A stretch of DNA of 64,000 nucleotides from an uncultured Pseudobdellovibrionaceae bacterium (GCA_964463705.1 CAYXCH010000021.1:65162-129161), one strand, 5' to 3'; counted from the first letter of the stretch, positions 19,358 through 54,323 are shown. Program-made: numbers and translations. Notes: generated by a model not told the origin, from the sequence alone.

Positions 19358-20341
19358 CTATGATATTTTATAATAGTCTTTATACCACTGCACAAAATTA
19401 CGCAATCCCGTATCTATATCTGTCGTTGGCGCCCATCCCAACGCTCGCAATTTCTGCACATCCGCCATTGTTTGCGGCACATCACCCGGCTGCATGCGCA
19501 ACAATCGCTTTCGCGCCGTCTTTCCCGTCGCTCGTTCCGCCGCCGCAATAAAATCCATTAATGCAATTGGTGTATCTCCGCCGATATTGAACACATCATA
19601 AGAAAAATCGGCATCTAAGACTGTCACCGTTCCACGAACAATATCATCAATATAGGTAAAATCGCGCTTCATTTTTCCCCGATTAAATACGTCAATGCGC
19701 TCTCCGCGCAAAATACGTTCCGGAAACAAAAACACGCCCATATCCGGTCGCCCCCACGGTCCGTAGACCGTAAAATATCGCAGCGCCGCAACATTCAATC
19801 CATATACACGATGAAATGCATGCGCCATCAATTCTTTTGCTTTTTTTGTTGCGGCATAGGGTGACACCGGCGCATCCACCCGAGCATCTTCATGAAATGG
19901 CACCGTTGCCAACTCACCATACACACTACTGCTGGATGCATACAGTACTTTCTTTACTTTATATTTTACGGCAAGTGTAAAGATATTTGTTGTTCCCACC
20001 ACATTGACATCGGCATACAGTGACGGATCTTCCAGTGATGCACGCACGCCCGCCATCGCCGCCAAATGAATAATCGCCGTTGGACGTGTTTTCGCAATAA
20101 TTCGGTCCATCATCGCTATATTGCGAACATCCGCGCGAAATAGTGTAAAGCGTCCCCGCTTATTTTCCCCGCGAGCATTGCGATACCCGCGCAAAAATCG
20201 ATTAATCCTTGCGCGCTTTAATGACGGATCATAGTAGTCGTTAAAATTATCTACCAATACCACGGCGTCGCCACGATCCATAAGCGCCTTCGCCACCGCA
20301 CTCCCGATAAATCCGGCACCACCGGTGATTAGTACAGTCAT
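19358..20341 (-). CDS. NAD-dependent nucleotide-sugar epimerase (UDP-glucuronate 4-epimerase-like SDR)
   Basis: MTVLITGGAGFIGSAVAKAL Rossmann motif, YASSSSVYG, and the YAATKKAKE catalytic YxxxK. Confidence 0.8.
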   Translation of the reverse strand: MTVLITGGAGFIGSAVAKALMDRGDAVVLVDNFNDYYDPSLKRARINRFLRGYRNARGENKRGRFTLFRADVRNIAMMDRIIAKTRPTAIIHLAAMAGVRASLEDPSLYADVNVVGTTNIFTLAVKYKVKKVLYASSSSVYGELATVPFHEDARVDAPVSPYAATKKAKELMAHAFHRVYGLNVAALRYFTVYGPWGRPDMGVFLFPERILRGERIDVFNRGKMKRDFTYIDDIVRGTVTVLDADFSYDVFNIGGDTPIALMDFIAAAERATGKTARKRLLRMQPGDVPQTMADVQKLRALGWAPTTDIDTGLRNFVQWYKDYYKIS

Positions 20342-23027: not shown

Positions 23028-23028
23028 G

Positions 23029-23100
23029 TAGCCCGTAGGGGAATCGAACCCCTGTTACGAGGATGAAAACCTCGCGTCCTAACCACTAGACGAACGGGCC
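23029..23100 (-). tRNA. tRNA-Glu (anticodon TTC)
   Basis: Reverse complement GGCCCGTTCGTCTAGTGGTTAGGACGCGAGGTTTTCATCCTCGTAACAGGGGTTCGATTCCCCTACGGGCTA, closely parallel to canonical bacterial tRNA-Glu. Confidence 0.8.
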
Positions 23101-24455: not shown

Positions 24456-25535
24456 TTATCTACATCGTGGAAGCGATATTCTTCTTACAACATCTACTTC
24501 CTTTATAATCTCTTTATGAGATTCAATTAATGGTAGAATACGCACCTCTTTGACACCACTATACAATAATGCAACTGGATCTATATCACCATTAATAATA
24601 TTCTGCAAATAAAGATCATTTGGTAATATCCCTTGATCAATATATTGCTGAATTTCATTCCATCCAAACTCTGCCATCAGTGTTTGACGAATAAACTTTG
24701 TTAGTAACTTCTTTTCATGCTGCTCTTTTTGTTGCAGACTAAGCACCTTATAAAAATCATCATTACTGCGCTCCCATGATGTGATAATCGGAACAATGCC
24801 ACGACCATATCTTTTAATAAGATGCATGATAGCAATAATCTCCTCAACACCACTGAGCTCATAGCGCTTTCCATCATGCTCCACAAATGCTCGCTCCTCT
24901 TCCGGTGCGCGCTTTCGTGATATTTTAGGAAAACCACCAACAGAGCGTAACTTATGTATATCCCATAAAGCAAAAGTATTTGCAATGCGCCCATGTAATA
25001 CACTTTCATCAAGTGTGTGTGGAGAATGATATATTCCATGATCCGGAATTAAAAGCTTTTCTTTATCTAAATCTCCAAAGATTGTTGGTCCACTGACATA
25101 AGCACCATCATACATTGCACGGACTGTCTCTTCATAAATAGGGAGTGAAAACGTTTTATGAACAACTTCAGGAGAAATAATCAAAGAGTGTGTCTGCCCA
25201 TCATTTTCCTGCGCATGTAGTGGCTGATTTAGCGCCTCACAAAAGATATCACCGTTTACAATCGGCATAATCTTAATACGGGAGTCCTTACCAATAGATG
25301 ATTGTAACTCTGAAAGAATAACAGTGGATGCTGCGCAATCCTCTCCAAGCTCTGTAACAAAACGACGATCATTCCATACAGCAATTGTAATTGATTTTAG
25401 CGGCTCAATTGCAGATGCTGTTTTATCTAAAAGATGTGTTGCTGCATCTGCAACAAACTGAGCGCGCTCTATTGCTCGTATTGGATCTTTTTCATAAACT
25501 CGTATAATCCCCGATATATTCATAATAGATTGCAA
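24456..25535 (-). CDS. Hypothetical protein encoded in a strongly AT-rich island (no family recognised)
   Basis: 359-aa ORF with local GC of roughly 35-40%, against about 58% in flanking genes. Flanked by AT-rich intergenic regions carrying TATAAT-like boxes. Confidence 0.4.
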   Translation of the reverse strand: MQSIMNISGIIRVYEKDPIRAIERAQFVADAATHLLDKTASAIEPLKSITIAVWNDRRFVTELGEDCAASTVILSELQSSIGKDSRIKIMPIVNGDIFCEALNQPLHAQENDGQTHSLIISPEVVHKTFSLPIYEETVRAMYDGAYVSGPTIFGDLDKEKLLIPDHGIYHSPHTLDESVLHGRIANTFALWDIHKLRSVGGFPKISRKRAPEEERAFVEHDGKRYELSGVEEIIAIMHLIKRYGRGIVPIITSWERSNDDFYKVLSLQQKEQHEKKLLTKFIRQTLMAEFGWNEIQQYIDQGILPNDLYLQNIINGDIDPVALLYSGVKEVRILPLIESHKEIIKEVDVVRRISLPRCR

Positions 25536-25622: not shown

Positions 25623-26153
25623 CTATTGAATCACTCGTAATGCCGTAACCGCGCGATATACACTGTCACAACTGACCAGAGTGCGAGAAATCTCCCGCGG
25701 ATCATACAATGCGATCTGCGCCACATCATCCGCCGCACGACACTGTGCGTAAGTTTCTTCGGAAATTGGTGCAAGAAAATGAATATCCACTCCCAGTGTT
25801 GTTACTCCCTTGTACGGATACGTAAATGATCCACTGCACAAATAACGCAGTACTGACGGAGAAAGCGTGATTCCCAACTCCTCATGAATTTCTCGCACCG
25901 CCGCATCCTCAAATGATTCCGGCGCATCCACAAATCCGCCGGGAAAATCCCATTTCCCTTTATTTGGATCATGGGCGCGCTGCGCCAATACCACGCGTCC
26001 ATCCGGTAGTTGTAGAACAACACTAACCGCTGCAGACGCATTCTGAAACAGCTCCGATCCGCACGTACCACATCGTGTCATACGCTGCGGAATCCGCTCC
26101 AATTCCGTACCGCCGCAGAACGGACAGTACCGCTGTTGCGTAAGATCAAACAT
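25623..26153 (-). CDS. NUDIX hydrolase with N-terminal C4 zinc-ribbon
   Basis: CPFCGG...CGTCG zinc ribbon, then the Nudix box GGFVDAPESFEDAAVREIHEELGI. Confidence 0.8.
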   Translation of the reverse strand: MFDLTQQRYCPFCGGTELERIPQRMTRCGTCGSELFQNASAAVSVVLQLPDGRVVLAQRAHDPNKGKWDFPGGFVDAPESFEDAAVREIHEELGITLSPSVLRYLCSGSFTYPYKGVTTLGVDIHFLAPISEETYAQCRAADDVAQIALYDPREISRTLVSCDSVYRAVTALRVIQ

Positions 26154-27138
26154 TGCGTTCTTTTAATGGCTTCCACCAAGAGGTATGTTCACGAAACCAT
26201 TCTACCGTCCGCTCCAATCCCTCATCCAATGTCACACTCGGCGTCCATCCCAACTCTTCGCGGATTTTGGTGTAATCAATATCGTAACGAAAATCATGTC
26301 CTTTACGATCCTCCACATACCGAATTACATCCTCCTCCTTCTTTCCCATCAGCGCAACCAGCGTCCGAACAATATCTATATTGGTCGGCTGATTATCACC
26401 ACCGACACCATATGTCTCTCCACTGCGTCCACGACGAATAATCAAGTCAATCGCACGACAGTGATCGGTCACAAATAACCAATCCCGCACCTGCATTCCC
26501 GTCCCGTACACCGGTACCGTCTTCCCTTCCATCATATTGGTGATCGCCAAAGGAATCAGTTTCTCCGGAAAGTGGTACGGACCATAATTGTTTGTGCAAT
26601 TACTTATCGTCACATCCACACCGTAAGTACGATGATAGGCGCGCACCAGGTGATCCGATCCCGCCTTGGACGCACTGTACGGACTGCTCGGATCATAGGG
26701 CGTCTCCTCGGTGAACGGCGGATCGTTGGGTCCGAGATCACCAAAAACCTCATCAGTGGAAACATGATGAAAACGAATAGACCGCCCCGCTTCTTGCGCA
26801 TTCCGCACCGCCTCCAACAATGTAAACGTACCGACAATATTTGTTTGAATAAACACCGCCGGACCCGTAATAGAGCGGTCCACGTGACTTTCCGCCGCAA
26901 AATGTACAACCGTATCTATTCCATCATCTATCAACCGGCGGACAAGCGCACCATCACAAATATCTCCGTGGACAAATGTAAATCGTGGATCATCATCCCA
27001 CTGTGCCAGTGTTGCGCGACACCCGGCATATGTTAACTTATCCAATACGACAACACGATCTTCCGAAGAACGACTCAATATGTAGTGCACAAAGTTTCCC
27101 CCGATAAATCCGGCACCACCGGTAACAAGATAGTTCAT
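26146..27138 (-). CDS. rfbB: dTDP-glucose 4,6-dehydratase
   Basis: MNYLVTGGAGFIGGNFV Rossmann motif, YSASKAGSD (catalytic YxxxK), 330 aa. Confidence 0.9.
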   Translation of the reverse strand: MNYLVTGGAGFIGGNFVHYILSRSSEDRVVVLDKLTYAGCRATLAQWDDDPRFTFVHGDICDGALVRRLIDDGIDTVVHFAAESHVDRSITGPAVFIQTNIVGTFTLLEAVRNAQEAGRSIRFHHVSTDEVFGDLGPNDPPFTEETPYDPSSPYSASKAGSDHLVRAYHRTYGVDVTISNCTNNYGPYHFPEKLIPLAITNMMEGKTVPVYGTGMQVRDWLFVTDHCRAIDLIIRRGRSGETYGVGGDNQPTNIDIVRTLVALMGKKEEDVIRYVEDRKGHDFRYDIDYTKIREELGWTPSVTLDEGLERTVEWFREHTSWWKPLKERNV

Positions 27139-27199
27139 AAAAAACGCACAATTATTCTTAATACTGCCATTCTACCAATACTTTACATTCGGGACAATA

Positions 27200-28330
27200 T
27201 TATGGCGTTATGGAGCGGATATACCAATAAAAAATCCCTTTGGCAGCATCAGAACAACGCCCATCATCCGTACATCCACAACGCCACTGCATCCCCTGGC
27301 GCTCACACTGGTAGACCGCCACAATATTGGAGCGAGCCGTTACTGCCGGAGGGAGTGTGCCAACTGCCGTTCCGATAATCCATTTCCCTGTTGTATCCCG
27401 TATTCCCTGTAATGAGATTGCCTGCGTAAAATTTTGCCCATCCGTTGTTGCATATGCCGTTGCATATGTATATGTTTGTTTATTGCCTGTCCGAAACTGC
27501 CACGGCAACTGATCACAACGAACATGCAGCCTTTCTTCACCTACCGGAATTAATGCGGGATTTTGCACAAATAACGGAATCGGTCCCGTACAGGTACGTG
27601 GGAGTGTTCCCAAATTCTCCGATGAGGAGTTCTGCATGGAAGTATTTTGTAAAGCAGTGGCATTCATGGCAGCGGCAAATGTCTCCGCCATAACATCATA
27701 TCCTTTGGCATTGGGATGGACGCCATCTACCATCAACGTCGTTTGCCAATCCGGTTGTGACACAAATGCCGCATACTGATCTACCAAGTAGAGTTGTGGG
27801 ATATGAGCGGAGGCAACATAAGAGCGAATCTCGGAATTCAATTCCTGTGCCCGAGCGTTTGCCGGTCCATCAATGGGAATGATTGTGGATACATAAATAC
27901 CAATCTGTGCATCATGCTGCACAATTGCATCCACCATTGCACGAATATTGGCAATCGTGCTCTCAATGGAATTTCCATTTAGCACATCATTGGTGCCGGC
28001 ATGAATAAGAACAACGGAGCCCGATGGCGCATCTGCCAGTTCATTTGTAAGATTTTGCCGCAAGCGATTCAATATTTGCGGTGTCTCTTGTCCACTGACT
28101 GCCGAATGATCATAATCACCATCTCCCACTCCGTTACGAAACGGTCCGACAAAATCATATGCCCCCATTCCAAGCAATCGCTGTAACGTCCCACGGTAAG
28201 AAAAATAAAACGGTGCCGGATACCCTTCGGTAATGGAGTCGCCTAGTGGGAGAAGTCGTGGAGGTGCCGCCGATACAGTGTCCACAATCAAAACAAAAAG
28301 CAGTATCCCGCCAAATAACAATCGGAACAT
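27200..28330 (-). CDS. Secreted SGNH/GDSL-family hydrolase with C-terminal Cys-rich module shared with the 1435-aa surface protein
   Basis: Signal peptide, then LGDSITEGY (block I Ser), GTNDV, DGVHP (block V). The last ~90 aa, TAYATTDGQNFT...QWRCGCTDDGRCSD...FYWY, are homologous to the C-terminus of ORF 30061..34368. Confidence 0.7.
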   Translation of the reverse strand: MFRLLFGGILLFVLIVDTVSAAPPRLLPLGDSITEGYPAPFYFSYRGTLQRLLGMGAYDFVGPFRNGVGDGDYDHSAVSGQETPQILNRLRQNLTNELADAPSGSVVLIHAGTNDVLNGNSIESTIANIRAMVDAIVQHDAQIGIYVSTIIPIDGPANARAQELNSEIRSYVASAHIPQLYLVDQYAAFVSQPDWQTTLMVDGVHPNAKGYDVMAETFAAAMNATALQNTSMQNSSSENLGTLPRTCTGPIPLFVQNPALIPVGEERLHVRCDQLPWQFRTGNKQTYTYATAYATTDGQNFTQAISLQGIRDTTGKWIIGTAVGTLPPAVTARSNIVAVYQCERQGMQWRCGCTDDGRCSDAAKGIFYWYIRSITP

Positions 28331-29481
28331 TAGGCAAACATGCTAAATTGCTTACGATACCGATCCATCATATCCGATATTTTTGATCGGATAATTTGTG
28401 CATTGTATTTCATATATTCTTCATTGATAGTGATATTTCTGTATGCAAAATCAATATGTAGCAACATGGATACATGAGAAATGAGAATGCGTGCAATCTC
28501 TAAATTTAGAAGCGCGTCTTCCGGTCTCTGCTCATATGTTGTCAAAAATGATTTCATAGTGGGCGTATACTGTATATCATCTATATCACCATCCTCTTTT
28601 AGATAATAAAAACTACCGAGTGTATCTACAACGGGTCTAACGATGTTTGTTTTCACAGCATTAATATAATGCCTCTCTGTCTCATCTAAAAAGATAGAAT
28701 CACGATCACGAGAGGTGTCCATCAGTGTCGCCAACAGATTGCGTACCTCTTTATTCTCGGAAAGCTCTGCCGCTGTCAATACAAACGCTCTTTGCATTAA
28801 GCGCTCACGAAACGATTGGTTGGCAGTAAGATAAATTGACCATAAATTATCCATGCTATTGTTGTGTGTACCATTATATGATTTTCCGGAAAGCATTTGA
28901 GCATATACAGATTCCATGGACGGATAAAAAGAAAACTCTTCAAAAGACTGATCAATATCATGAAAAAATGATATCTCCGCCCCTCGTTTAGACATTAATT
29001 CCTTAACAAAGAAAGATATTGTGGTCAGCCCCACTGTTGCATCCGGTGAATACTCTTGCCGCTCCGCACCCTCACTCCCCTGTGCTTCTTTGGGTACTCT
29101 TAGGGTGTGTTTTGCGGTATTTACTATACGATCAACAAATGCCGCCGTTTTGAGTGCGGGAGTCATACCCACCGTGGAACGTATTCCATGACGTACCCAA
29201 GATGGAATATCTCCTCCGGTGTCAATCACCTGAATTGCCTGATCCACCGCCTGCGTCCGACTCTTAGACTCTTCCGTTATATCCTCTCCAAAATAATCGG
29301 CATAAAATTCTTCCAAAATATTTCGTGGCGAAACACCACGGTCTTGAGCCAGCGAAAACACCGCTCGTCGAGCAAGCGCAGCGTCAATCAACGGCGGACG
29401 TTGATGTTTTTGTGTATTAAACGGATTCTCCATCATCACATTTGGTAAATACGGGTAATTGCGAATCTTTTTCACTAACAA
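28330..29481 (-). CDS. Hypothetical protein (lower-GC, no family recognised) inside the rfbB/rfbC surface locus
   Basis: 383-aa ORF. TAATG overlap with the SGNH gene start. Start may be at an internal Met (M16 or M17) to reduce overlap with the rfbC stop. Confidence 0.4.
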   Translation of the reverse strand: MLVKKIRNYPYLPNVMMENPFNTQKHQRPPLIDAALARRAVFSLAQDRGVSPRNILEEFYADYFGEDITEESKSRTQAVDQAIQVIDTGGDIPSWVRHGIRSTVGMTPALKTAAFVDRIVNTAKHTLRVPKEAQGSEGAERQEYSPDATVGLTTISFFVKELMSKRGAEISFFHDIDQSFEEFSFYPSMESVYAQMLSGKSYNGTHNNSMDNLWSIYLTANQSFRERLMQRAFVLTAAELSENKEVRNLLATLMDTSRDRDSIFLDETERHYINAVKTNIVRPVVDTLGSFYYLKEDGDIDDIQYTPTMKSFLTTYEQRPEDALLNLEIARILISHVSMLLHIDFAYRNITINEEYMKYNAQIIRSKISDMMDRYRKQFSMFA

Positions 29482-30028
29482 TCGGACGTGCTATGCCATA
29501 GCGTTCCATCGGCCACGGAATTGCCAGTGTCGGATCATTCCACCGAATACCGGCGTCATGAGAGGGTGTATATACCGCATGGGTACATTTGTAGGAAAAT
29601 AACGTATCATCATCTAATGCAAGAAATCCGTGGGCAAATCCCGGTGGAATCCAGAACTGTTTCCATGTCCACATTTGTGTATTCGCATCAAATGTCGGTG
29701 GTGTTAATGTTATATGCACAGATGATCCATACGTCGGCGATGTCGGTCGCATATCTACCGCCACATCAAACACCGCTCCGCGAAGTACGCTCACCAATTT
29801 CCCCTGCGCATAAGGTGCACGCTGAAAGTGCAGACCACGCAATACGCCTCGTGCGGAACAGGAAAGATTATCTTGCACAAATGCGTCCTCTGACACTCCC
29901 AGCGCCCGCGCATACTCCTCCCGACGAAAACTTTCCACAAAGAAACCGCGCGCATCACCAAACACGCGCGGTGTCACGATTTTCACATCGGGAATTGTTG
30001 TGGGTGTAACATCAATCATTGAACACAT
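29417..30028 (-). CDS. rfbC: dTDP-4-dehydrorhamnose 3,5-epimerase
   Basis: PRVFGDARGFFVESF and the downstream cupin core are typical of RmlC. 203 aa. Confidence 0.85.
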   Translation of the reverse strand: MCSMIDVTPTTIPDVKIVTPRVFGDARGFFVESFRREEYARALGVSEDAFVQDNLSCSARGVLRGLHFQRAPYAQGKLVSVLRGAVFDVAVDMRPTSPTYGSSVHITLTPPTFDANTQMWTWKQFWIPPGFAHGFLALDDDTLFSYKCTHAVYTPSHDAGIRWNDPTLAIPWPMERYGIARPIVSEKDSQLPVFTKCDDGESV

Positions 30029-30060
30029 CTACCTCCTCCTCAGAAGAGGGGGTATTTCAT

Positions 30061-33000
30061 CTAGCGCGATACCGCTGTTTCATATCCTGCAACATACCAG
30101 ATAAATCGGCCGGCGGCGGGATCAGAGCAGACACCGGAACCGGTACATCCGCATTGCCACTGATTTCCGCTACGCTTACACGTATACGTTGCCACATACT
30201 GTTGACCGCCATCCGCCGGAAGTTGTATCTCACCACGCCCGATAACCCATTGTCCCGTTGAATCCATTGTACCACTTACCGGTACGGAATTGGTAAAGTT
30301 GGAACCGTCGGTTGTATAGTATGCCGTATTCCACGTATATATCGTATCCCGATCTTCTCCAACCACCGCAATAGGTGAACCGCCATCACAGTATACATCA
30401 ATAATTGCAGCACCATTAGTCAATGTTTCGTTTAGCTCACTCGGGACACGCGTTTCACATGAGTGTCGCAAATCTCGCGTAACCGGCGATACCGGACTTG
30501 TCGGTGATGTGCCAACCTCTGTTGATGCTCCTATCGTTGTTGTTGTTGTATTCTTCGTTCCAGTGGTGGTAGTTGTCGTATCGTTGGGACACTGACGGAA
30601 TTCACAATTATTCTTCGGATCCCTTCCCACATATGTCCGTCCATCGGCGCAAAGTTTAACATCTGCCGTACATGCCGTCTGAACAACATCTTTATCCTGT
30701 GTATTCTCCGTATCAACACTTCCGACATATTTTGCAAGCATACATCCGGGATTCAAGCTGGCATTTTCACCATCCGAGTGAACCGCCGCCACACTGTACG
30801 CATCTTGTGACAGTACAACACGACCCACACCCTCCGCATGACCTTGCGCTTCTACCGTTTTTAGATCCGTTGTCGGATTTGTTTGAACAATCGCCTCTCC
30901 GTTTTTCCCATAAAACGCAACGTAGTATCGCTCGTTCGGCTGATCTTGATTATGGCGACCATCAAAGGAGTCTGATGCGGAAAGATATACTTCATACACA
31001 CCGCGCGGAATTGTGATACCGCTGATAACATCTTTTTGCCCCGCCCATTCCAGACGCTGTGTAAACCGTACAATAATATCTCGAGAACTTCCCGTCTTAA
31101 ACGGACAGTAATTAATATACTGGGCATTTTCCGTTCCATCCACCGCCGTTGTTCCAATATGATCACCCACAACAACAGTCAGCGTCTTTTTATGCTCCGC
31201 TTCACCGCTCTTTCGCGGAGTACACGTCAAAGTAAATTCTGTTGTTTGATCTACATACATCAACTCTTCCTGACTACTCCATGTCTGCAAATCAATAGAC
31301 TTTACCGCCGCCCGCGCTCGTACATAAGCGGAATTGTTTTCCATTCCCTTGCGAGAGACCTTACAGGATTTCATTCCATAGAAATCCCAACTTAGCAAAA
31401 CATATCCCGGATCAGTCAGGTGCGGTTTATTGGCGGTAAAGTACCGAATACCGGCCGTCCCCCCGACGCGAACATCTTTGGTGCGAACTTCTGTAATTGT
31501 CGCATCCGCCAAGTCATAACATGCAAGGGATACATGGACTGTTCCATCTTCAAATCCATGAAGTGCAAACGTCTTACTATATGCCGTTGCCTCATAGTAT
31601 ACGGCACGCGGAATCAACTCTATCGCCCGACTTCCGGACGAAGTGCGCTGTGATGCAACCAAGCGACAACGCATCGGTTTCTTATCCACCACCGCCCAAG
31701 TAGCGGTAACACTTCCACCGGACTCTACACTTTCCGGCGTAACATCAAAGGAGGAAATAAAGGTCCCCGCCGTGGAAGGATCTCCGGAAGTATCCGCCGG
31801 ATCCGTTGTTGTTCCCGTGTCGGAAAATGTAATAATTACGGTTCGTGTATCGTTGGTATTTGTTCCCACACGCCAACAATCCAGTGCCAATACAACCTGA
31901 TCACCGGATGCGGCGGTAGATCCGAAATTACTCCACGTCAATGACCCCTTTACAGTAAGTTTATCCTTTCCTTCCACAACCTTAACAAGAGACTCATCAA
32001 TTGCCTTGATCCCGGCAACCGTCCATCCGTTATATGCACGACAGTGACTGCGATCATCAGCATAGTTCCACGCAATGGAGAGATCACTTCCCGGAGCTAC
32101 CGTAATGCTATCCGATGCTCCATTAACGGTAAATGCAAATGCGGGCGCATCAGAATCAGTCTGCTGTGTGGTATCTCCTTGAACTTTTACCGTTATACTT
32201 GCAGATACCTCATTAAGACCAAACGCATTGGAACAGGTGATGGTGTATGTTGAGTCTGCGGTAATTCCCGGAACGGTAAACTCTCCCTGTGGTTTCAGGA
32301 CGGTACGATAAATACGAAACGTCGTTGCATCGGAAGCACTTGCCTTTACATCGTTGGCAGACCATGCACCGGACGCCGTACAAAATGTACGATTCGGAGC
32401 ATTCCACTGTAGCGTAAAGTGTTGTCCGGGCGCAACCGTTTGTGTGCCTTCTTTGATAGAGAATGCAACAGTTCCATCTGTTGCCGTAGGAGCATTTCCC
32501 ACCGTTTTTGTCGCTGTCAACGGTTTTGTGTCGGGCTGTACCACTCCGTTGGCACTCACTCGATGACGCAGACATCGTATTGTGAAAGAATAATATCCGG
32601 CCGGCGTTTGAAACTCCACATTTCCGTTCGGCACAAGAGCGCGAGGAGATCCGTCCTTCTCAAACAAGAGCTCGGGCTTATTCTGCAACAATTCTTCCGT
32701 TGTTGTATCTCCCGTGATCAAACAGTAGTCTTTTCCGGTAGTTTTCCACTGTAATGATACGGTATACATTTCATTGTTATCCGGAGATGATGCCACCGCC
32801 TGAAAATCCAATGATGCGGAATCCTGAGACACGAACCCTCCACTATCATCGGAAGAATCATTGTTATTTCCATTGTTGGAAGAGTTACCACCTGCCGAAT
32901 CAACAACGTTAAGAGTGATTGTGGAAGTTTTGATATAATGGCGTGGTGCCGGATACTTACATGTTAATACCGCCTTATATTCCCCCGGAGAGTCAAATAC

Positions 33001-34368
33001 CACCGGATAGAATACCCTATTATTAGATGCTGTGGATTGTAGTTTTCCTCTATCAAAATCTGCATCATATTTGGAAAATGTCGCATCACCCACCTTTGAA
33101 ACCCTGATCGAACATTCCGTTGCAGGTACGGTTAATTTTTTTATCTTAAAATAGTTAAACCAATTCAATGTTACCGTCTCACCAATGGCAATATTATCTT
33201 GCTTTGTTGCATAAAATGATAATATTGCACGATCACCGGTGACCTCACCACCCGTGGCATCCATCGCCTTAAAGCGAATATTTGCACGTAATGGATAGTA
33301 AGTTTCCGTACCACATTCTTCATGTGCTTGACACTCTCTTGTGCCGCGACAACGTAACTCAAATGTCTGTGACCAATTAATGCTGTCAAACGTAAGTGTG
33401 TCTGATGTCTTGACATCCGGACGATATTGATCCAGACTTGCACTGCATGAATCAGCATTCGGAACATTCCAAGAAATCTTTACCGGCGTATCCAGTGGCA
33501 CCGAAATATCTCCCGATGTATTCTCGTAAACGGTATCACCAACGATAACGGCAAAAGGTCGCCTACTTTCATCCACGGATGATGTATCTACTTTTACGGT
33601 ACGATGCGAATCATAGTATGTTCCTCCACTCTTTGAATGCTCAAGACATTTTAGGTGTATATTAAGATCCGAATTTCCATAATCATCCGCATGGAGTGTT
33701 ACTTGACCGGATTTTTTAGAAACACCGGGAACAGGTTTCTCGTTAACAAACATCCTACACCTATCATCCATTGCGCGAGGTGCATTCCACGATGCGACAA
33801 CGGAACCATATTTTGGAATCGTTTCCTTATCAACAGACAGAGCCGTTTTATCTACAACCGTCATCCACCAGGAACTCCCGTACACCTTTCCATCCTTTGT
33901 ATCTTTGTCACAAACAAGTACAAACGTATTCTTTCCCAGCGAATAAAGATCCGGTGTTATTTTTAAACGTTTATCTTTGGTAATCGTTACTATTTTCTGC
34001 TTCTTTCCCTTAGCATTATCCAAATATACCGTACACTGCGGATAATAAAAAGAACCGCCATCTTCACCCTCCTCGCGTCTTCCAATACCATTAGCATTGG
34101 CAAGTATTGATATTTCCTCATCTTTATACACTTCCGCCCCGCTATCAAATATGCCGTATCCATAAAACTTAATATCGGGTCGACTTTTATCAATATAATC
34201 ATATCCTTCAACAACCTCCGCTGAAGCGGTGTGCATGGACGCAAAGATGCCAACGATACCAATCCCCAGCGCAAGAACCCCCTTCATCACAACATTGCCC
34301 ACCCAATGCCGCACAAAATACCCGATATTATGAGAATATCGTATATATTTGTTTTTCATAAAAACCAT
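30061..34368 (-). CDS. Giant (1435 aa) membrane-anchored/secreted beta-sandwich repeat surface protein with conserved Cys-rich C-terminal module
   Basis: N-terminal signal/anchor helix. Many 90-110-aa repeats of W/Y/T/S/G-rich beta-strand character with paired Cys. The Thr-rich linker TTTTTGTKNTTTTT precedes a C-terminal module similar to the SGNH hydrolase C-terminus. Confidence 0.6.
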   Translation of the reverse strand: MVFMKNKYIRYSHNIGYFVRHWVGNVVMKGVLALGIGIVGIFASMHTASAEVVEGYDYIDKSRPDIKFYGYGIFDSGAEVYKDEEISILANANGIGRREEGEDGGSFYYPQCTVYLDNAKGKKQKIVTITKDKRLKITPDLYSLGKNTFVLVCDKDTKDGKVYGSSWWMTVVDKTALSVDKETIPKYGSVVASWNAPRAMDDRCRMFVNEKPVPGVSKKSGQVTLHADDYGNSDLNIHLKCLEHSKSGGTYYDSHRTVKVDTSSVDESRRPFAVIVGDTVYENTSGDISVPLDTPVKISWNVPNADSCSASLDQYRPDVKTSDTLTFDSINWSQTFELRCRGTRECQAHEECGTETYYPLRANIRFKAMDATGGEVTGDRAILSFYATKQDNIAIGETVTLNWFNYFKIKKLTVPATECSIRVSKVGDATFSKYDADFDRGKLQSTASNNRVFYPVVFDSPGEYKAVLTCKYPAPRHYIKTSTITLNVVDSAGGNSSNNGNNNDSSDDSGGFVSQDSASLDFQAVASSPDNNEMYTVSLQWKTTGKDYCLITGDTTTEELLQNKPELLFEKDGSPRALVPNGNVEFQTPAGYYSFTIRCLRHRVSANGVVQPDTKPLTATKTVGNAPTATDGTVAFSIKEGTQTVAPGQHFTLQWNAPNRTFCTASGAWSANDVKASASDATTFRIYRTVLKPQGEFTVPGITADSTYTITCSNAFGLNEVSASITVKVQGDTTQQTDSDAPAFAFTVNGASDSITVAPGSDLSIAWNYADDRSHCRAYNGWTVAGIKAIDESLVKVVEGKDKLTVKGSLTWSNFGSTAASGDQVVLALDCWRVGTNTNDTRTVIITFSDTGTTTDPADTSGDPSTAGTFISSFDVTPESVESGGSVTATWAVVDKKPMRCRLVASQRTSSGSRAIELIPRAVYYEATAYSKTFALHGFEDGTVHVSLACYDLADATITEVRTKDVRVGGTAGIRYFTANKPHLTDPGYVLLSWDFYGMKSCKVSRKGMENNSAYVRARAAVKSIDLQTWSSQEELMYVDQTTEFTLTCTPRKSGEAEHKKTLTVVVGDHIGTTAVDGTENAQYINYCPFKTGSSRDIIVRFTQRLEWAGQKDVISGITIPRGVYEVYLSASDSFDGRHNQDQPNERYYVAFYGKNGEAIVQTNPTTDLKTVEAQGHAEGVGRVVLSQDAYSVAAVHSDGENASLNPGCMLAKYVGSVDTENTQDKDVVQTACTADVKLCADGRTYVGRDPKNNCEFRQCPNDTTTTTTGTKNTTTTTIGASTEVGTSPTSPVSPVTRDLRHSCETRVPSELNETLTNGAAIIDVYCDGGSPIAVVGEDRDTIYTWNTAYYTTDGSNFTNSVPVSGTMDSTGQWVIGRGEIQLPADGGQQYVATYTCKRSGNQWQCGCTGSGVCSDPAAGRFIWYVAGYETAVSR

Positions 34369-34433
34369 ACACTTTTTATTACATAATACTTATTTACAAT
34401 ATATCATACCACCCCCTGGCGTCGCAAGTACTC

Positions 34434-36044
34434 CTACTCTCGTGTCAAGTCCTCCAGTGTCAGCTCCGTATCATGACGCAATGCGTCGGTATGATATGTA
34501 TATCGCGTACCATCCGGAAGAATAACAGTTAGTGTAAACGGTGTGTCGGCAATTCCGGATTGCTTTTGAATCTTGAACCGATAATTTTCCGGCGTAATAG
34601 ACGTCGGTAACACATACTGCAACATTGTCGGAAGCACGGGACGCTCACCGATAAGAACATCAAATTTATAAGCGTAAACCGTCCGATTGGCAAATGTTTC
34701 TGTATCCGCCGATGGCGGGAAAAACCACTCCCGTGTAATCCACCGCGATCCGCGCGGAACAATCATGCGCGTATAGGAATGATAATCTTTGGTGTCCCAA
34801 TCTTCCGACTTCGCCGTGTGCGTATAAGTAACCCGTGTTGTTGCGAGGGCATGGGGCGCACGATATGATCCGCTCATAATTTTCTCTTTCAAATCCGCCG
34901 TCCGATAACGTATCATACGTCCCGCCGCCGCATCATTGACCACCGCCCCTCGCCCGCGAAAATCTACTGTGTGCTCAATCACTCGTGTAATATATCGATC
35001 ACTCTTAAGTGACCCGAGATTTGCATCCACAACAAAGAGATAATCCCCCGTCCATTCCGTGTCCACCTCTCCCGTCCAATGATGTTCTCGCGCAATGGAT
35101 TGCAATCGCTCATCAGCAAGGAACAGCTGAATATCTTTTCGCTCCAATCCCTCCAACACAAAGTGAATCAGCGCCGGAATTGTCTGTGGAAGCTTCTGCG
35201 GAGCAGTAAGACGATGAACGATTTCCGCACCAAGATCCTTCATAACCTGCTTCCGCTGAACACGCTCCCACGGACGAACGCGACGAATTTTCTTTCCATT
35301 TTCATCTCGCGGCTCCGTGTACTTTTTCCCCAGGCGCTCTGCCTCCGCTTCTGCACGCTCCACCGCCGCGTCACGCAACAAAATATCTTTTTCTACCGCT
35401 TCCTGCAACTGCCACGCCGCATCCTCCGGCGTAAACGTCACCGTATAAGACCCCCGCTGACGACTCTTTGCTGTGACAGTGATGGGGCCGGTCACCGCGA
35501 TGAGATCATTCAACAATGTTGCGTTAAGCGCCACCACCGCATCAAACTGCGGATTGCTCTGTGGATTCAGCCCATAGAAATGCAACACATCCCGTACCGC
35601 AGTGGGAAAATCCGGAGAGAAATTGGCATCTCGGAACTTCCACTTTTTAATACCCATGTACTTCGCCAGTGGCGGAAGCGCCGGCCGATCACTCTTGATA
35701 CTTTTATCAAAACGATTTGCGTCCACAATCTCCATCTGTGTAACACGCCCATTCCGAATTTCCATGACCGCAAATTGCCCTAAAAATCCTCCCGTAGGTC
35801 GCAATTCAAAATTATTCTGCAACAATACAAATATCCGATATGTCCGATCATCCGACGCAAGGAACGCTTTGGCAATTTCTGTCAATGCCCGCATCTCCTC
35901 CTCCTGTCCCTCCGGTGCGGGCAAATAGTCAATTGCCGTTTTCGCAGCAGTGGTAATAATAATGTGTTCATTTTTTTGAAACAGTATGTATCCGCCGGCA
36001 CCCAGAATCAGTACCGCAAGCACTATGCCAAAAATCGTCTTCAT
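34434..36044 (-). CDS. DUF4012-like membrane-anchored extracytoplasmic protein
   Basis: N-terminal TM segment plus NNFELRPTGGFLGQFAVMEI, a motif recalled from the DUF4012 family. 536 aa. Confidence 0.45.
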   Translation of the reverse strand: MKTIFGIVLAVLILGAGGYILFQKNEHIIITTAAKTAIDYLPAPEGQEEEMRALTEIAKAFLASDDRTYRIFVLLQNNFELRPTGGFLGQFAVMEIRNGRVTQMEIVDANRFDKSIKSDRPALPPLAKYMGIKKWKFRDANFSPDFPTAVRDVLHFYGLNPQSNPQFDAVVALNATLLNDLIAVTGPITVTAKSRQRGSYTVTFTPEDAAWQLQEAVEKDILLRDAAVERAEAEAERLGKKYTEPRDENGKKIRRVRPWERVQRKQVMKDLGAEIVHRLTAPQKLPQTIPALIHFVLEGLERKDIQLFLADERLQSIAREHHWTGEVDTEWTGDYLFVVDANLGSLKSDRYITRVIEHTVDFRGRGAVVNDAAAGRMIRYRTADLKEKIMSGSYRAPHALATTRVTYTHTAKSEDWDTKDYHSYTRMIVPRGSRWITREWFFPPSADTETFANRTVYAYKFDVLIGERPVLPTMLQYVLPTSITPENYRFKIQKQSGIADTPFTLTVILPDGTRYTYHTDALRHDTELTLEDLTRE

Positions 36045-37135
36045 AGGGTATCAATTACTCGTGATGTTTCGCTATGTTGCGCATGTGTACGAATATGTAC
36101 ATCGTGTTGCGGGAACGGAATCTCTATTCCGGCAGCGGCAAATCGTTTATAAATTGCACGATTAACATAATGTCGGGACTCTCCCCGTTGCTCCGGACGT
36201 GCCACCCAATAGAACAAACTATACTCTATACTGGACTCCCCAAACGCCCGAAACCGAGCGCGCGGTGCCGGCGTGTCCACTACCAATTCCGTCTCCGTTG
36301 CCGCAGCAATTAACTCTTGTTCCACTTTATCAATATCCGATCCGTATGCCACGCCGACATCTACACGAACGCGAAACCGCTCTGATGGGCCGCCGGACTC
36401 GTTCACAATCTTGGTATTGCCCATGATACCGTTCGGCACCGTCACTTCCACATCATCGCGCGTCAGCATGCGCGTAGACCGCAGTCCGATATGTGTCACT
36501 CGTCCCCGCTCACCGCTATCCAACTCAATATAGTCTCCAATCTTATACGGTGCATCCGCTACGATAAACACGCCCGCAAAAAGATTGGCCAACGTATCCT
36601 TCGCCGCAAATCCCACCGCCATCCCGATAATTCCCGCACTGGCGAGCCACGCTGTCATGTTAATACCCCAAATGGTGAATATTGCATATAATGCCGCCGC
36701 CACGATCAATACCACCAACGCATTTTCAAATAACGGTAACGTTTGCTCTTTTACAAACGTCACTTGTGGAATGTCTTTGGACTTGTACAATACTGCACGA
36801 ACCGCATGAAACAAAAACTGTGCCCAGAGGAATACAAGAATAGTCTGCACGATACGCATTCCAAATTGCGCACTCTCCATCCCGATGATACCGTCCATTG
36901 TCAGTGCGGCCAGCGCACCGAAAAGAAACACCGAATAAAACAATGGACGCTGTAACGCCGCAATAATGCGATCATCAATCTCCGTTGTCGTATGCCGTGT
37001 TACGGCTCGCAACATACCGATAACAACGATACGCACAATCACTGCCGCCATCACCACCCCCACGCCGAGCAAAATCAGTTGAATAGTATGGGGCTGCGCG
37101 GCAAACAGTGTGGAAATCTCTGTACGAATACTCAT
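36041..37135 (-). CDS. Mechanosensitive ion channel, MscS family
   Basis: Several N-terminal TM helices, then the MscS beta-domain KIGDYIELDSGERGRVTHIGLRSTRMLTRDDVEVTVPNG. Confidence 0.8.
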   Translation of the reverse strand: MSIRTEISTLFAAQPHTIQLILLGVGVVMAAVIVRIVVIGMLRAVTRHTTTEIDDRIIAALQRPLFYSVFLFGALAALTMDGIIGMESAQFGMRIVQTILVFLWAQFLFHAVRAVLYKSKDIPQVTFVKEQTLPLFENALVVLIVAAALYAIFTIWGINMTAWLASAGIIGMAVGFAAKDTLANLFAGVFIVADAPYKIGDYIELDSGERGRVTHIGLRSTRMLTRDDVEVTVPNGIMGNTKIVNESGGPSERFRVRVDVGVAYGSDIDKVEQELIAAATETELVVDTPAPRARFRAFGESSIEYSLFYWVARPEQRGESRHYVNRAIYKRFAAAGIEIPFPQHDVHIRTHAQHSETSRVIDTL

Positions 37136-37146: not shown

Positions 37147-38505
37147 TTAGCGATCAATCGGGAATCGGCGACAGACGGAACGAACATCGGCGCGAATTGC
37201 ACGTAACGATGTATCTCGTGCACACCGCGCTCGGAACGCTCGCACCGCGGCGGCACGATTCGTTGTCGGCATCTCCACATCGGCAATAAGATCCATTACC
37301 GCCGAAATCCACACGGCAATCTTTTTCATCTCTCGCACTCCCATACCCCGTGTCGTAATACTCGGCGTTCCGATGCGAATACCGCTGGGGTAGAACGGAC
37401 TGGACGCATCGGCGGGAATGGTGTTTTTATTTACCGTAATCCCGACGGTTTCCAGCGCCAACTCCGCAAATACGCCCCGCCCGACGCCGCAATCAATAAG
37501 CATCAAATGTGTATCGGTTCCACTGCCCACCACACGCACACCGCGATTCTTTAGCTCTTGTGCAAGTACGGCGGCATTCTTCACCACTCGCGCACCGTAT
37601 GCGCGGAATGATGCCGTTGACGCTTCTTTAAGTGCGACGGCAATCGCTGCGGTTTGATGATCATGTGGTCCTCCCTGCAACATCGGAAATACCGCCGCAT
37701 CAATCTTGGCACCCAACTTCGGATCCCGCGCAAGTCCGCGTGATGTCACCATAATCATCCCGCCCCGCGGTCCGCGTAACGTCTTGTGTGTCGTTGTTGT
37801 AATAATATCCACATGTCGCACCGGTGACGGATGAACACCGCTGACAATCAGTCCCGTGATATGTGATGTATCCGCCGCAAGATACGCTCCGACATCCCGC
37901 GCAATCCGCCCGAATGCCGCGTAATTGATTTTCCACGGGTAGGCACTGGTTCCCACCCATATCAACTTCGGACGGTGCTTCTTTGCCAATGTTGCCACTT
38001 CATTCATATCAATCCGCCCACGCCGATTCACATGATATTGAACGGCGGAATAAAACGTCCCCGTCGCACTTGCCTTCCATCCATGGGTAAGGTGTCCGCC
38101 ATCCGGCAACGCCTGCCCCATCACCGTATCTCCCGGCGCACATGTTGCGGCATATACGGCGAGATTTGCCGGCGAACCGCTGTACGGCTGCACATTGACA
38201 TACGGCACACCGAACAACGCTCGCGCCCGCTCTTGCGCCAACTCCTCAATCGCATCCACATGCTCCTGACCGCCATAATACCGCTTCCCCGGATATCCCT
38301 CGGAATACTTGTTTGTCAAGATTGAGCCCATCGCTTCCCGCACCGCCGCAGACGCGATATTCTCTGACGGAATCAATTCCATTGTCTCATTCTGCCGGCG
38401 CGCCTCCGCCGCAATCAGTGTCGCAACTCGCGGATCACTCTGCCGCAATGATGTTCGCGTTCGTGATGATTTTGCGGTAGTTTTTGCGGTCTTCATATCC
38501 TTCAC
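37147..38505 (-). CDS. glyA: Serine hydroxymethyltransferase with about 40-aa N-terminal extension
   Basis: TTTTHKTLRGPRGG PLP-lysine motif and an SHMT fold throughout. Confidence 0.9.
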   Translation of the reverse strand: MKDMKTAKTTAKSSRTRTSLRQSDPRVATLIAAEARRQNETMELIPSENIASAAVREAMGSILTNKYSEGYPGKRYYGGQEHVDAIEELAQERARALFGVPYVNVQPYSGSPANLAVYAATCAPGDTVMGQALPDGGHLTHGWKASATGTFYSAVQYHVNRRGRIDMNEVATLAKKHRPKLIWVGTSAYPWKINYAAFGRIARDVGAYLAADTSHITGLIVSGVHPSPVRHVDIITTTTHKTLRGPRGGMIMVTSRGLARDPKLGAKIDAAVFPMLQGGPHDHQTAAIAVALKEASTASFRAYGARVVKNAAVLAQELKNRGVRVVGSGTDTHLMLIDCGVGRGVFAELALETVGITVNKNTIPADASSPFYPSGIRIGTPSITTRGMGVREMKKIAVWISAVMDLIADVEMPTTNRAAAVRAFRARCARDTSLRAIRADVRSVCRRFPIDR

Positions 38506-38663
38506 ATAATTAACCCGTTATTTTTCCATCATACCACAGAAATACTTTTTATATAAAACACAAATAACAAAGACCGTCCATTCCGTAACAGTAATGACAT
38601 CACTCATCCGGACTACTTGCACAATTTGTATTGAAAATATCTCAAATACTTGCAAATAATAAA

Positions 38664-38690
38664 AAAACCCCCGTCATTGGGGGGTCTTAT
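38664..38690 (-). terminator. Intrinsic terminator directly after rplU
   Basis: acccccgtcattggggggt hairpin followed on the minus strand by a T-tract (plus strand aaaaaaa at 38660-38666). Confidence 0.55.
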
Positions 38691-39017
38691 TTATGCGTTA
38701 ATCTTTGTAATCTTCACCATCGTAAGCGGTTGCCGATGCCCAAAGAAAATGCGATATCGCTTCTTTGGCTTATACTTCACACCGCTGACTTTCTTTGCTC
38801 GTGTCTGATCAACAATTGTCCCCTCTACCGTCGCACCGTCCACCGTGGGAGATCCCAATGTAACGGATGGCGTCTCTCCCTCCTCCGCTACCAACAATAC
38901 CTCATCAAATGTCACCGTTGTCTCCGGTGCTCCGTCAATTTTCTCTACGGCGACAACATCACCCTCCGCCACGAGGTACTGCTTTCCGCCGGTCTTTATC
39001 ACTGCAATCATAGTCAT
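38691..39017 (-). CDS. rplU: 50S ribosomal protein L21
   Basis: MIAVIKTGGKQYLVAEGDVVAVEKI... Canonical L21. Confidence 0.85.
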   Translation of the reverse strand: MTMIAVIKTGGKQYLVAEGDVVAVEKIDGAPETTVTFDEVLLVAEEGETPSVTLGSPTVDGATVEGTIVDQTRAKKVSGVKYKPKKRYRIFFGHRQPLTMVKITKINA

Positions 39018-39093
39018 GAAACTTAGTCAAACAAAAACCGCGCTCTGCGCTTTTGCCATATTATCGCATATCTTATACATTTTGTCCAGCACA

Positions 39094-39960
39094 TTATCGC
39101 TGTGTTGTTCGTGTACACGGTACATCGGCGCGACAGGTATAAATAATATCTCCACGCTCATCGGTGCGCACTGTTGTAATGCCATACTGTGTCAACCGAT
39201 TGATTACCGCCTCATGCGGATGTCCATACCGATTGTTGCGCCCAACACTAATTACCGCCTCCTTCGGATGCGTCCGCTCCAACAATGCCACCGAAGTGGA
39301 TGTATCCGATCCGTGGTGCCCCACTTTAAGGACCGTAATATCTCGTGCGGGAAGATTACGCTCCTGAGCGGTGGATAAATCTCCGGTAAACCAAAATACC
39401 GTTTGTCCAATCGTATACTCCGTCACAATGCTGGTATCGTTTACATTGCGAATATTCCGCACCTGCGTTTCCCGTCGCGGAAAAAGCACGCGCAACTGTC
39501 CGTACTCCGGCGCTCCTTGTACCATATCTACCGAAACATATTGATCAGCCATAACAACCTCTGCCCGACTCTGCGTCAATGCACTGTGCCACGCCGTTGC
39601 CACACGAGATGTCTTAAATGCATTGGTTGAAATCACGGTCCCGACGCGCAACGTTCGCAACACCGCCACTTGCGCACCGATATGATCCGCATCCGGATGC
39701 GTGGCAATAACAACATCTACCACTCGGTCCCACACGGGCATATATCGCGCCAACGCCTCCAACAGCCGCTGTCCGTCCGCGCCCCCGTCAATGAGAATTT
39801 GTCTCGCACCCTGTGTAATCAAGATTGCATCACCCTGTCCGACATCCAAAAATACCACTCGCACCGTATCATCCGTGCGCACATCATATAATGCCAGCGC
39901 TCCGATACTTATTGCACCCCCCAGTACCAAAACGCCCACAATGTGTCCCAGTAACCGCAT
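39094..39960 (-). CDS. comEC: ComEC/Rec2 C-terminal metallo-beta-lactamase domain protein (separate ORF)
   Basis: FLDVGQGDAILI and HPDADHIGA MBL motifs, with an N-terminal TM segment. TAATG overlap with the upstream ComEC membrane ORF. Confidence 0.75.
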   Translation of the reverse strand: MRLLGHIVGVLVLGGAISIGALALYDVRTDDTVRVVFLDVGQGDAILITQGARQILIDGGADGQRLLEALARYMPVWDRVVDVVIATHPDADHIGAQVAVLRTLRVGTVISTNAFKTSRVATAWHSALTQSRAEVVMADQYVSVDMVQGAPEYGQLRVLFPRRETQVRNIRNVNDTSIVTEYTIGQTVFWFTGDLSTAQERNLPARDITVLKVGHHGSDTSTSVALLERTHPKEAVISVGRNNRYGHPHEAVINRLTQYGITTVRTDERGDIIYTCRADVPCTRTTQR

Positions 39961-45968: not shown

Positions 45969-46159
45969 AAACGAATTTCACTATCCGGTATTACCGTGTA
46001 ATCATCATATCCGATTGTAATGTTCCGTAACGCCCAGAGTTTCAGTACCGCGCCACATACCACAGCAAAAAGAAACACCAATACCAAACGTACAGAACGG
46101 TGCCGCCACCACCGCCGCACCGGCTTACCGATTCGTCGTATGTACGTCGTTATATCCAT
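45965..46159 (-). CDS. Small hypothetical single-TM protein
   Basis: 64 aa with one TM helix. ATGA-coupled to the downstream gene. May be spurious. Confidence 0.2.
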   Translation of the reverse strand: MDITTYIRRIGKPVRRWWRHRSVRLVLVFLFAVVCGAVLKLWALRNITIGYDDYTVIPDSEIRL

Positions 46160-50300: not shown

Positions 50301-50554
50301 GGAACAAGTGTGGCAACCATTGCCTGTGCCGATGCACAGTCTTGTGTAATATTCGCCAACCCCGTAATTTGCAGCACCGAGCCGGTGGGCGTCTGCATTG
50401 TTCCCCCATCAACAAAGATATGCGCATTCGCACTGAATGGCGCAATACAGAACAAAAAAAACACGCCGACGCGAACGATGGAAATAGTCATCTTCATAAG
50501 CACAGCGTGTCGTATATTACACCGCATAATAACACAAAAACGATGTTTTATCAA
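47348..50554 (-). CDS. Large secreted surface protein: right-handed beta-helix (pectate-lyase-like) N-terminal region + at least 5 Calx-beta repeats + poly-Lys linker + C-terminal hydrophobic anchor with basic tail
   Basis: Signal peptide. Beta-helix-like TIRDVTFTDSPLL...VTVENVTVTNTG. Repeated xDDxxExxETF/V Calx-beta motifs (RADDSLETDETFRV, VNDAVLEGEETVRV, ...). KKKKKKTE linker, then ...WIWLVVLLLLLLLAILLAMVLRRMIREGRQES. Confidence 0.6.
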   Translation of the reverse strand: MIKHRFCVIMRCNIRHAVLMKMTISIVRVGVFFLFCIAPFSANAHIFVDGGTMQTPTGSVLQITGLANITQDCASAQAMVATLVPPTAPQPVITCVEGTDTLTLTDGETVTKPIVLFGSARLVVEDGATVTFDQSGQAQGLPPVFVYVGGDAAVDISPTQRATLRNVNTSITLLQGGVPTTMSLTTGAFIVLRSTAAQTIRNVHLEAFGHRGPATTSSVVRCEATWNDDALRDVRSAPLTIHAAQSGAITIRDVTFTDSPLLALYTARDVTVENVTVTNTGTVTPLGFVRDIRSPRAGLVTSAGVLQITTSLADNARVEIVGASNATGDMTANTPALRCGTTALSAVVQTVQNGREYADGTVRDAVVRVTLTDDTGASYTNTTGGDLAFTVALADETAHGGDTDGDFDNTAQTAVIAPGSATADITIPVRADDSLETDETFRVILTPRSDNATAVSMTNGGAVTVTISDDSIAQATVSATPGAEGETPTPVTFTVTLDKVNDTGTAIPVTLALGSTSDTARGGVDYDDNNSAVRTASIAPGERTASFSVAVLSDRALEDAETVTGTVQTTASRVTMAQATATTQIVDNTAVSATLSATPGAEGGADMTFVVTLDYTNDTASPITFDIVRTDGSATVGDDYADTLGAHSLSVASGAAAGVLSVPVVDDALMEVTESLRAQISNPSHSAVTITTASATATITDNDTRGATISATQQGREDGTPVTFTVALDRINATGQEVTFALALSGTAEQGTDYVAPDSTVRIPSGEQRAVITISPLNDTIYEGEETIIATISDPSIAALTIDTSTATATLADDEVRPVTAVVRTVQNGAEHAPTDMIFEVVLSAPNGASESVAFDVTVDGGTASAEDYGSSVFGTRVVAIAPGETAARLTVPVVNDAVLEGEETVRVRIASPSLPHVTILTDTAMATIDDDEDDIVASENSSRDKGRDRSAKKKKKKTEVPATVVQTVTRPLRALGETAARSVAPRETIVPVAALRATEQKERPTTPTVTVSRNSPKVLGVQTRVPESSSRGYQWIWLVVLLLLLLLLAILLAMVLRRMIREGRQES

Positions 50555-54318: not shown

Positions 54319-54323
54319 TTATG

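Follow-up and report, generated by a model that had tools for sequence, protein, structure and literature searches.

Genes for the synthesis of dTDP-L-rhamnose are found in more than one arrangement. In the canonical rmlABCD (rfb) cluster they stand together; when 80 RmlC loci were drawn from the representative genomes of GTDB, 65 of them had RmlA, RmlB and RmlD all encoded within 10 kb. Non-contiguous rml genes are also common in bacteria (bioRxiv 10.1101/854612), examples being those of Mycobacterium tuberculosis, Neisseria gonorrhoeae and Streptococcus thermophilus. Sugar-nucleotide genes can also adjoin genes for envelope proteins. This is seen in the loci for rhamnose-containing cell wall polysaccharide (RhaCWP) of streptococci and lactococci (PMC4931226) and in the exopolysaccharide (EPS) cluster of Bifidobacterium longum, where a DUF4012 protein is found (PMC5412050). 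The locus described here encodes two enzymes of the dTDP-rhamnose route, RmlB and RmlC, among exported and membrane proteins. It lies in a stretch of 64,000 nucleotides, called the window below, that was deposited as DNA of an uncultured Pseudobdellovibrionaceae bacterium (GCA_964463705.1 CAYXCH010000021.1:65162-129161). Positions are counted from the first letter of the window, and all genes of the locus are on the minus strand.

The locus resembles a canonical cluster in that RmlB and RmlC equivalogs are encoded on one strand within 3 kb. It differs in that two genes unrelated to sugar synthesis split rmlB from rmlC, and RmlA and RmlD are absent locally. As in the dispersed systems, the rml genes are non-contiguous and have unrelated neighbours. 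Here, however, the neighbours are lineage-specific envelope proteins conserved together with rml genes in a relative, and the completeness of the pathway is presumed. Sugar-nucleotide genes adjoin envelope proteins as they do in RhaCWP and EPS loci, but glycosyltransferases for priming or elongation are lacking from the block, as are Wzx, Wzy, Wzz and an ABC exporter.

With modest confidence, the region can be described as a conserved cell-envelope neighbourhood of the Candidate Phyla Radiation (CPR; also called Patescibacteria) that holds part of a dispersed dTDP-rhamnose pathway, and not as a self-contained operon for half of that pathway. Its rmlB and rmlC genes sit among genes for a DUF4012 protein, a giant protein built of modules with two cysteines each, and a CE3-like SGNH esterase. 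What is new is the embedding of rml genes in a lineage-specific envelope locus with a previously undescribed shared domain. The initial annotation of this DNA, which proposed a dedicated six-gene module for glycan modification and surface display, is partly supported. The observation is a modest one, restricted to one lineage and based on two genomes.

RmlB, dTDP-glucose 4,6-dehydratase (26146-27138), scores 496.6 bits against TIGR01181, for which the cut-off is 365.1. The motifs GGAGFIGG, STDE and YSASK were all found by inspection. RmlC, dTDP-4-dehydrorhamnose 3,5-epimerase (29417-30028), scores 208.3 bits against TIGR01221 (cut-off 155.75) and matches PF00908 with E = 2.1e-63. Both genes thus exceed the NCBI equivalog cut-offs, in agreement with the initial annotation, and by these scores the two proteins are bona fide enzymes of the dTDP-L-rhamnose route.

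The initial annotation had also held that rmlA and rmlD are missing from the 64 kb. A Pfam scan of every open reading frame (ORF) of at least 150 aa in the window found no NTP_transferase (RmlA-type) or RmlD-type domain. Hidden Markov models (HMMs) were then built from seeds taken from fetched loci, 55 for RmlA and 35 for RmlD. Their targets were six-frame translations of the window and of extensions of 8.7 kb to its left and 9.4 kb to its right (about 82 kb with the window); the RmlA model was also run on a related genome, L003, described below. The RmlA model gave no match at E <= 10 in any of these. The only match of the RmlD model in the window and its extensions, at 34 bits, was a short-chain dehydrogenase/reductase (SDR) at 19358-20341. 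The absence is therefore borne out by both kinds of search, and neither gene stands just outside the window on either side.

Two proteins of the window were tried as stand-ins for the absent enzymes and rejected. The SDR at 19358-20341 (minus strand) is an extended SDR of 327 aa whose nearest structure in PDB is 5u4q (308 bits), followed by the UDP-glucuronate 4-epimerase 6zl6; none of the NCBIfam cut-offs is reached. The protein, probably an epimerase acting on UDP-sugars at C4, was not accepted as RmlD. In place of RmlA, the GalT-like protein at 8631-9647 was considered, but it resembles ADP-glucose phosphorylase (1z84, E = 4e-44). This GalT/HIT-family gene overlaps a GT2 glycosyltransferase gene by 4 nt (the pair spans 8631-10459, minus strand). 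The two may possibly form an alternative sugar-nucleotide route, though they include no RmlA.

Evidence that the locus is held together comes from L003, a Candidatus Moraniibacteriota metagenome-assembled genome and the sole relative recovered with the whole locus. Its gene order is MscS, DUF4012, giant protein, RmlC, a 948-aa protein, the SGNH esterase with its C-terminal domain, a DksA-like protein, RmlB, a 574-aa protein, GNAT, RmlD and NUDIX. Here too, rmlB and rmlC are found together with the SGNH, giant and DUF4012 genes, at protein identities of 32-74%. RmlB is 74% identical between the two genomes, and RmlC is 64% identical. For RmlC, L003 is also the best match among GTDB representatives, which do not include the window's own species; the others among the matches listed are mostly from Proteobacteria at 46-53%.

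The conserved block is bounded upstream by an MscS-type mechanosensitive channel (36041-37135; Pfam MS_channel_2nd and MS_channel_3rd) and downstream by a NUDIX hydrolase with an N-terminal Cys4 zinc ribbon (25623-26153; PF00293, E = 1.4e-19). The MscS protein is 68% identical to that of L003 and 71% identical to that of a third genome fragment, L086, which is informative for the MscS-DUF4012 edge alone. L086 is one of two short contigs found when metagenomes were scanned with a DUF4012 alignment, neither of which reaches the rml side. MscS and DUF4012 are adjacent in all three genomes. The gene upstream of MscS, in contrast, is different in each: the window has serine hydroxymethyltransferase (SHMT) there, L003 has an AstE/AspA-like gene, and L086 has aspartyl-tRNA synthetase. 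Since the block from MscS to NUDIX has been kept while at least one flank was rearranged, there is modest evidence of linkage beyond chance.

Four genes of the L003 block have no counterpart in the window, namely those for the 948-aa and 574-aa proteins of no known function, the DksA-like protein of 163 aa and GNAT. RmlD is a further difference. It is encoded in L003 (L003 19054-20019; PF04321, 219 bits), directly before a NUDIX gene whose product is 51% identical to that of the window. In the window the stop codon of rmlB overlaps the start of the NUDIX gene, and the segment with the 574-aa, GNAT and RmlD genes is missing without a remnant. Either a deletion in the window or an insertion in L003 could account for this, both directions being possible from two genomes. 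Because the L003 block includes RmlD where the window position is empty, the half pathway describes this one locus rather than a design, although the initial annotation had taken it for one. The published record points the same way. Synthesis of dTDP-rhamnose is reported to be conserved in Paceibacteria and other CPR classes (PMC9166423), in which it has been proposed as the source for a rhamnose wall polysaccharide (PMC9166423, PMC11809585, PMC5220378), and dispersed rml genes are common, as noted above.

The secreted SGNH esterase (27200-28330, 376 aa) matches Lipase_GDSL_2 (PF13472) with E = 2.9e-23. Inspection indicates an N-terminal signal peptide, followed by a catalytic domain at aa 27-216 and a C-terminal domain (CTD) at about aa 245-376 (nt 27203-27598). 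SGNH blocks I, II, III and V can all be read from the sequence, with Ser32 in GDS, and with HAGTND and DGVHP. A secreted SGNH esterase, as first proposed, is confirmed by the complete domain and the signal peptide. The nearest solved structures, 2vpt (E = 1.6e-9) and 5b5s (E = 6e-5), are acetyl esterases of the CE3 type; the score against NCBIfam AxeA1 is 27.5 bits, far under its cut-off of 700. Like modular CE3-type esterases such as 2vpt, the protein has all four blocks and a separate C-terminal module. Unlike in those enzymes, the appended module matches no known carbohydrate-binding module or Pfam family, and the similarity to CE3 is modest. The orthologue in L003 is 45% identical and also ends in the CTD.

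The same domain terminates the giant protein, where it is encoded at 30064-30471. The two copies in the window are 49% identical over 85 aa (E = 1e-23). The CTD is about 110-130 aa long and ends both proteins in both genomes. In an alignment of these four sequences, six cysteines and the motifs TAYxTTDG, GxWIxG and CGCxxxGxCS are invariant. Orthologous pairs are 43-46% identical and paralogous pairs 32-40%. Since the orthologous pairs are the closer ones, the sharing of the CTD is older than the split of the two genomes.

An HMM of the CTD finds matches in those four proteins alone in the approximately 105 kb examined. No credible match was found for any member in Pfam, for the profile in PDB, or in viral contigs. 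A search with a two-sequence alignment returned nothing, not even the parent proteins, so that null is uninformative. As judged from these comparisons, the CTD is a previously undescribed domain common to the esterase and the giant protein, a link that was absent from the initial annotation.

The giant secreted protein (30061-34368, 1435 aa) belongs to no Pfam or NCBIfam family and has no sequence match in PDB. A homologue search returned the protein itself alone among the 8000 candidates with most shared words. Its signal peptide was read by inspection. The modules, of which there are at least six, are about 100 aa long, and each has a W...C...xLxC pattern and a cysteine pair about 50 residues apart. 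The other parts are Ser/Asn/Gly-rich and Thr-rich linkers, a domain of about 130 aa that is conserved with L003, and the CTD. Just before the Thr-rich linker, at aa 1233-1260 (about 30589-30672), there is a mini-motif with four cysteines, CTADVKLCADGRTYVGRDPKNNCEFRQC, which looks like a small disulfide knot.

The L003 orthologue of the giant protein has 1485 aa. Identity is 32% over aa 644-1215 and 42% over the CTD. An HMM built from the L003 modules alone finds modules of the window protein with independent E-values of 4.4e-10, 3.6e-5 and 0.011, whereas the best of 200 shuffles gave E = 0.048. Against PDB, the module profile matched shark IgNAR V domains alone, at a marginal E of 0.012-0.9. 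The modules are compatible with an immunoglobulin (Ig)-like sandwich. The repeated modules of about 100 aa are supported by the L003 model, and the beta-sandwich fold of the original description weakly by the best IgNAR V match.

In its signal peptide, its repeated modules of Ig-like size and its low-complexity linkers, the giant protein is similar to the very large, fast-evolving secreted proteins of CPR bacteria. It also diverges fast, its 32% identity to L003 standing against 64-74% for the neighbouring enzymes. It differs from them in that homologues were detected in one relative alone and in that its C-terminal domain recurs in an esterase.

A length difference in this gene was also seen between strains. 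In the strain assembled in ENA, the Ser/Asn/Gly-rich linker at about 32933-32969 has 12 extra nucleotides and a cluster of substitutions, while about 12 sites differ over the remaining 21 kb. The length of this low-complexity linker thus varies at the level of strains. Near-identical copies of the window occur in metagenome assemblies from ENA, NCBI, JGI and Logan, all at 99.77% identity or higher. The ENA and JGI contigs are at least 99.85% identical, and their single-nucleotide polymorphisms are too few for a ratio of nonsynonymous to synonymous substitution rates (dN/dS).

The DUF4012 protein (34434-36044, 536 aa) scores 81.9 bits against PF13196 (cut-off 28; E = 8.3e-23) and is 69% identical to its counterpart in L003. 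By inspection its hydrophobic N-terminus is a membrane anchor. DUF4012 is enriched in CPR and Gram-positive bacteria (PMC6744442), and an envelope with a single membrane and a wall has been proposed for Patescibacteria (PMC11809585). Housekeeping genes interspersed along a single strand, together with ComEC and DUF4012, point to a CPR genome. The bacterium would be a relative of Moraniibacteriota with a small, streamlined genome.

All six ORFs from RmlB to DUF4012 and their junctions on the minus strand were confirmed as first described, including the TAATG stop/start overlap at 28330. The gaps between them are 61, -1, -17, 32 and 65 nt. This packing had been taken as consistent with a single transcription unit. 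The window as a whole, however, has nearly all its genes on the minus strand, a median gap of 20 nt, nine overlaps, and 29 junctions out of 44 that do not exceed 65 nt. The packing of the six genes is no tighter than this background and does not single them out as a unit. The six-gene boundary fares no better, as short junctions (at most 65 nt) continue without a break from SHMT (38505) to NUDIX (25623). The MscS stop and the DUF4012 start overlap by 4 nt, and the RmlB stop and the NUDIX start by 8 nt. Since the overlaps run on into MscS and NUDIX, the boundaries of the six genes are arbitrary. In a 64-kb slice of such a genome, neither packing nor apparently missing steps are a guide to design.

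Consensus scans found no terminator-like sites in the intergenic gaps of the block. Promoter-like sites were found upstream of the giant gene (34427-34398) and of rmlB (27197-27151); such sites number 35 overall, about as many as in shuffles (31.5). The 588-nt gap at 38505-39094, upstream of SHMT, contains the clearest hairpin of the intrinsic-terminator type in the region (38688-38664, with nine pairs and a run of T) and, at 38557-38528, a promoter-like site whose -10 is extended. Judging by these signals, transcription of the run to which the block belongs most likely begins in this gap. The top terminator-like match lies inside rmlC (29945-29972, minus strand), 56 nt into the coding sequence, and is a G+C-rich hairpin of 12 bp with a T-rich tail. 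It coincides with the conserved DARGFF motif and may be a by-product of coding constraint.

The remaining member of the six is an orphan gene (28330-29433) for a protein of 367 aa that is predicted to be helical and has no signal peptide. Its start follows the ENA gene call at 29433, with 367 codons before the stop; the ORF first described, 28330-29481, would encode 383 aa. It shares 17 nt with the end of rmlC and 1 nt with the start of the SGNH gene. Neither a k-mer comparison with 5.8 billion proteins nor a full HMMER run over 1.84 billion representatives retrieved anything but the orphan itself, which also lacks a match in Pfam, NCBIfam, PADLOC and PHROG. Its GC content is 41.3%, against 49.4% for the window. 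In L003 the slot between RmlC and SGNH holds the unrelated 948-aa protein, and the orphan has no similarity to the L003 slot genes (Smith-Waterman z of -0.3 to 1.2). The idea that the variable slots form a defence island was rejected, PADLOC and PHROGs being empty for the slot genes. The initial annotation had counted the orphan as a component of the module. With no homologue, a low GC content and a different gene in the L003 slot, it would instead be a recently acquired or fast-evolving passenger and no working part of the block.

If the region is a conserved envelope neighbourhood with part of a dispersed pathway, RmlA and RmlD would be encoded elsewhere in the genome. The dTDP-4-keto-6-deoxy sugar that RmlB and RmlC provide would go towards a wall polysaccharide that contains rhamnose. 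The esterase and the giant protein would exit the cell via the Sec route, and their common CTD may hold both on the same envelope component. The esterase could then strip O-acyl groups, probably acetyl, from an envelope glycan.

Several observations weigh against this account. The block encodes no glycosyltransferase, flippase or polymerase, and RmlA and RmlD were not located for the organism, of whose genome about 82 kb is visible. Neither packing nor co-orientation counts as evidence in this genome. Conservation of the whole block is seen in two genomes, with a third for one edge, and could be due to shared ancestry. Unrelated cytoplasmic genes stand between the parts: the orphan in the window, and the DksA-like, GNAT, 948-aa and 574-aa genes in L003. 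Structure prediction adds nothing, as the AlphaFold2 models of the CTD (predicted local distance difference test score, pLDDT, 36) and of the orphan (pLDDT 41.6) are both unusable.

The strongest rival explanation is that the adjacency means nothing. A compact, one-strand genome with residual ancestral synteny would then contain a complete rhamnose pathway of the ordinary kind, served by RmlB and RmlC, and independent of it would be the esterase, giant and DUF4012 proteins. This is unlikely, yet it has the most weight among the rivals because few genomes show the conservation and because the block has neither a glycosyltransferase nor an exporter. The short gaps and shared strand found throughout the window are what it expects. 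So are the housekeeping genes for SHMT, ThiI and tRNA-Glu that flank the block and join the same run, the unrelated genes inserted between the parts in both genomes, and the further glycan genes (GT2, GT4, SDR epimerase) scattered over the window. It does not readily explain why the block has been kept though each of the three genomes has a flank of its own upstream of MscS, or why two exported proteins have a private domain in common. DUF4012, moreover, is tied to polysaccharide loci elsewhere (PMC5412050).

The dedicated six-gene operon of the initial annotation would use the 4-keto-6-deoxy sugar made by RmlB and RmlC to glycosylate the giant protein, while the SGNH esterase edits acyl groups of the glycan. 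The start/stop overlaps and the gaps free of terminator-like hairpins would suit it, as would the CTD that connects the esterase with the giant protein and the lack of RmlD where L003 has one; the Thr-rich and Ser/Asn/Gly-rich linkers could, by inspection, bear O-glycans. It is nevertheless given very little credence here. The overlaps extend past the six genes on both sides, the block has no glycosyltransferase, and the orphan is not conserved. With RmlD inside the L003 block, the design of the lineage is not a half pathway. In the established Rml pathway, too, the 4-keto sugar is an intermediate rather than the usual donor. Just as improbable is a decaying or rewired pathway, in which RmlD and perhaps RmlA have been lost. 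Either no L-rhamnose would be made, or an unrecognised reductase would yield another 6-deoxyhexose, or precursors would be supplied by the host. The empty RmlD slot, where the RmlB/NUDIX overlap leaves no space for a remnant, is what such a loss would leave, and there is no RmlA or RmlD signal in about 82 kb. However, about 82 kb is roughly one tenth of a typical CPR genome, so this absence says little. CPR metabolism is reduced and host-dependent (PMC9166423), which would fit, but RmlB and RmlC are intact, with scores far over their cut-offs. The only other SDR nearby, that at 19358-20341, resembles the UDP-sugar 4-epimerases 5u4q and 6zl6 and not RmlD.

The neighbourhood with a dispersed pathway is therefore kept as the preferred reading, and it yields a concrete hypothesis, namely that the CTD anchors proteins to a wall glycan. 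In its full form, the CTD would be a new anchor for rhamnose-containing wall polysaccharide, and the block would couple sugar synthesis (RmlB and RmlC, with RmlD in relatives) to displayed proteins and a glycan-editing enzyme. This is a long shot. If true, it would describe a CPR-specific module that makes a wall glycan and hangs proteins on it, possibly with a part in attachment to host cells. CPR bacteria need contact with other cells but, to our knowledge, hardly anything has been learned of the way in which their envelope proteins are attached or of the roles of their wall glycans.

A few further features of the surroundings were recorded. Just downstream of the block, at 24456-25535 (minus strand), a 359-aa gene has a GC content of 37.8%, against 49.4% for the window, and of 25% at third codon positions. 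No match was found for it in Pfam, NCBIfam, PADLOC or PHROG, and by its composition it looks like another foreign orphan, the second here. At 46125-50554 (minus strand), a GT4-type glycosyltransferase ORF (46125-47450) overlaps by 103 nt an ORF of 1068 aa (47348-50554, TTG start) that contains three Calx-beta repeats. A glycan gene and a large protein are thus paired for a second time in the window. To the left of the window, by about 6.6-9.8 kb, a DUF8128 protein and a TrwB/TraG-like type IV coupling ATPase are encoded. Four tRNA genes, Trp-CCA, Thr-GGT, Tyr-GTA and Thr-TGT, are clustered at 54323-54669 (minus strand), and lone tRNA genes are found at 6168-6241 (Thr-CGT) and 23028-23100 (Glu-TTC).

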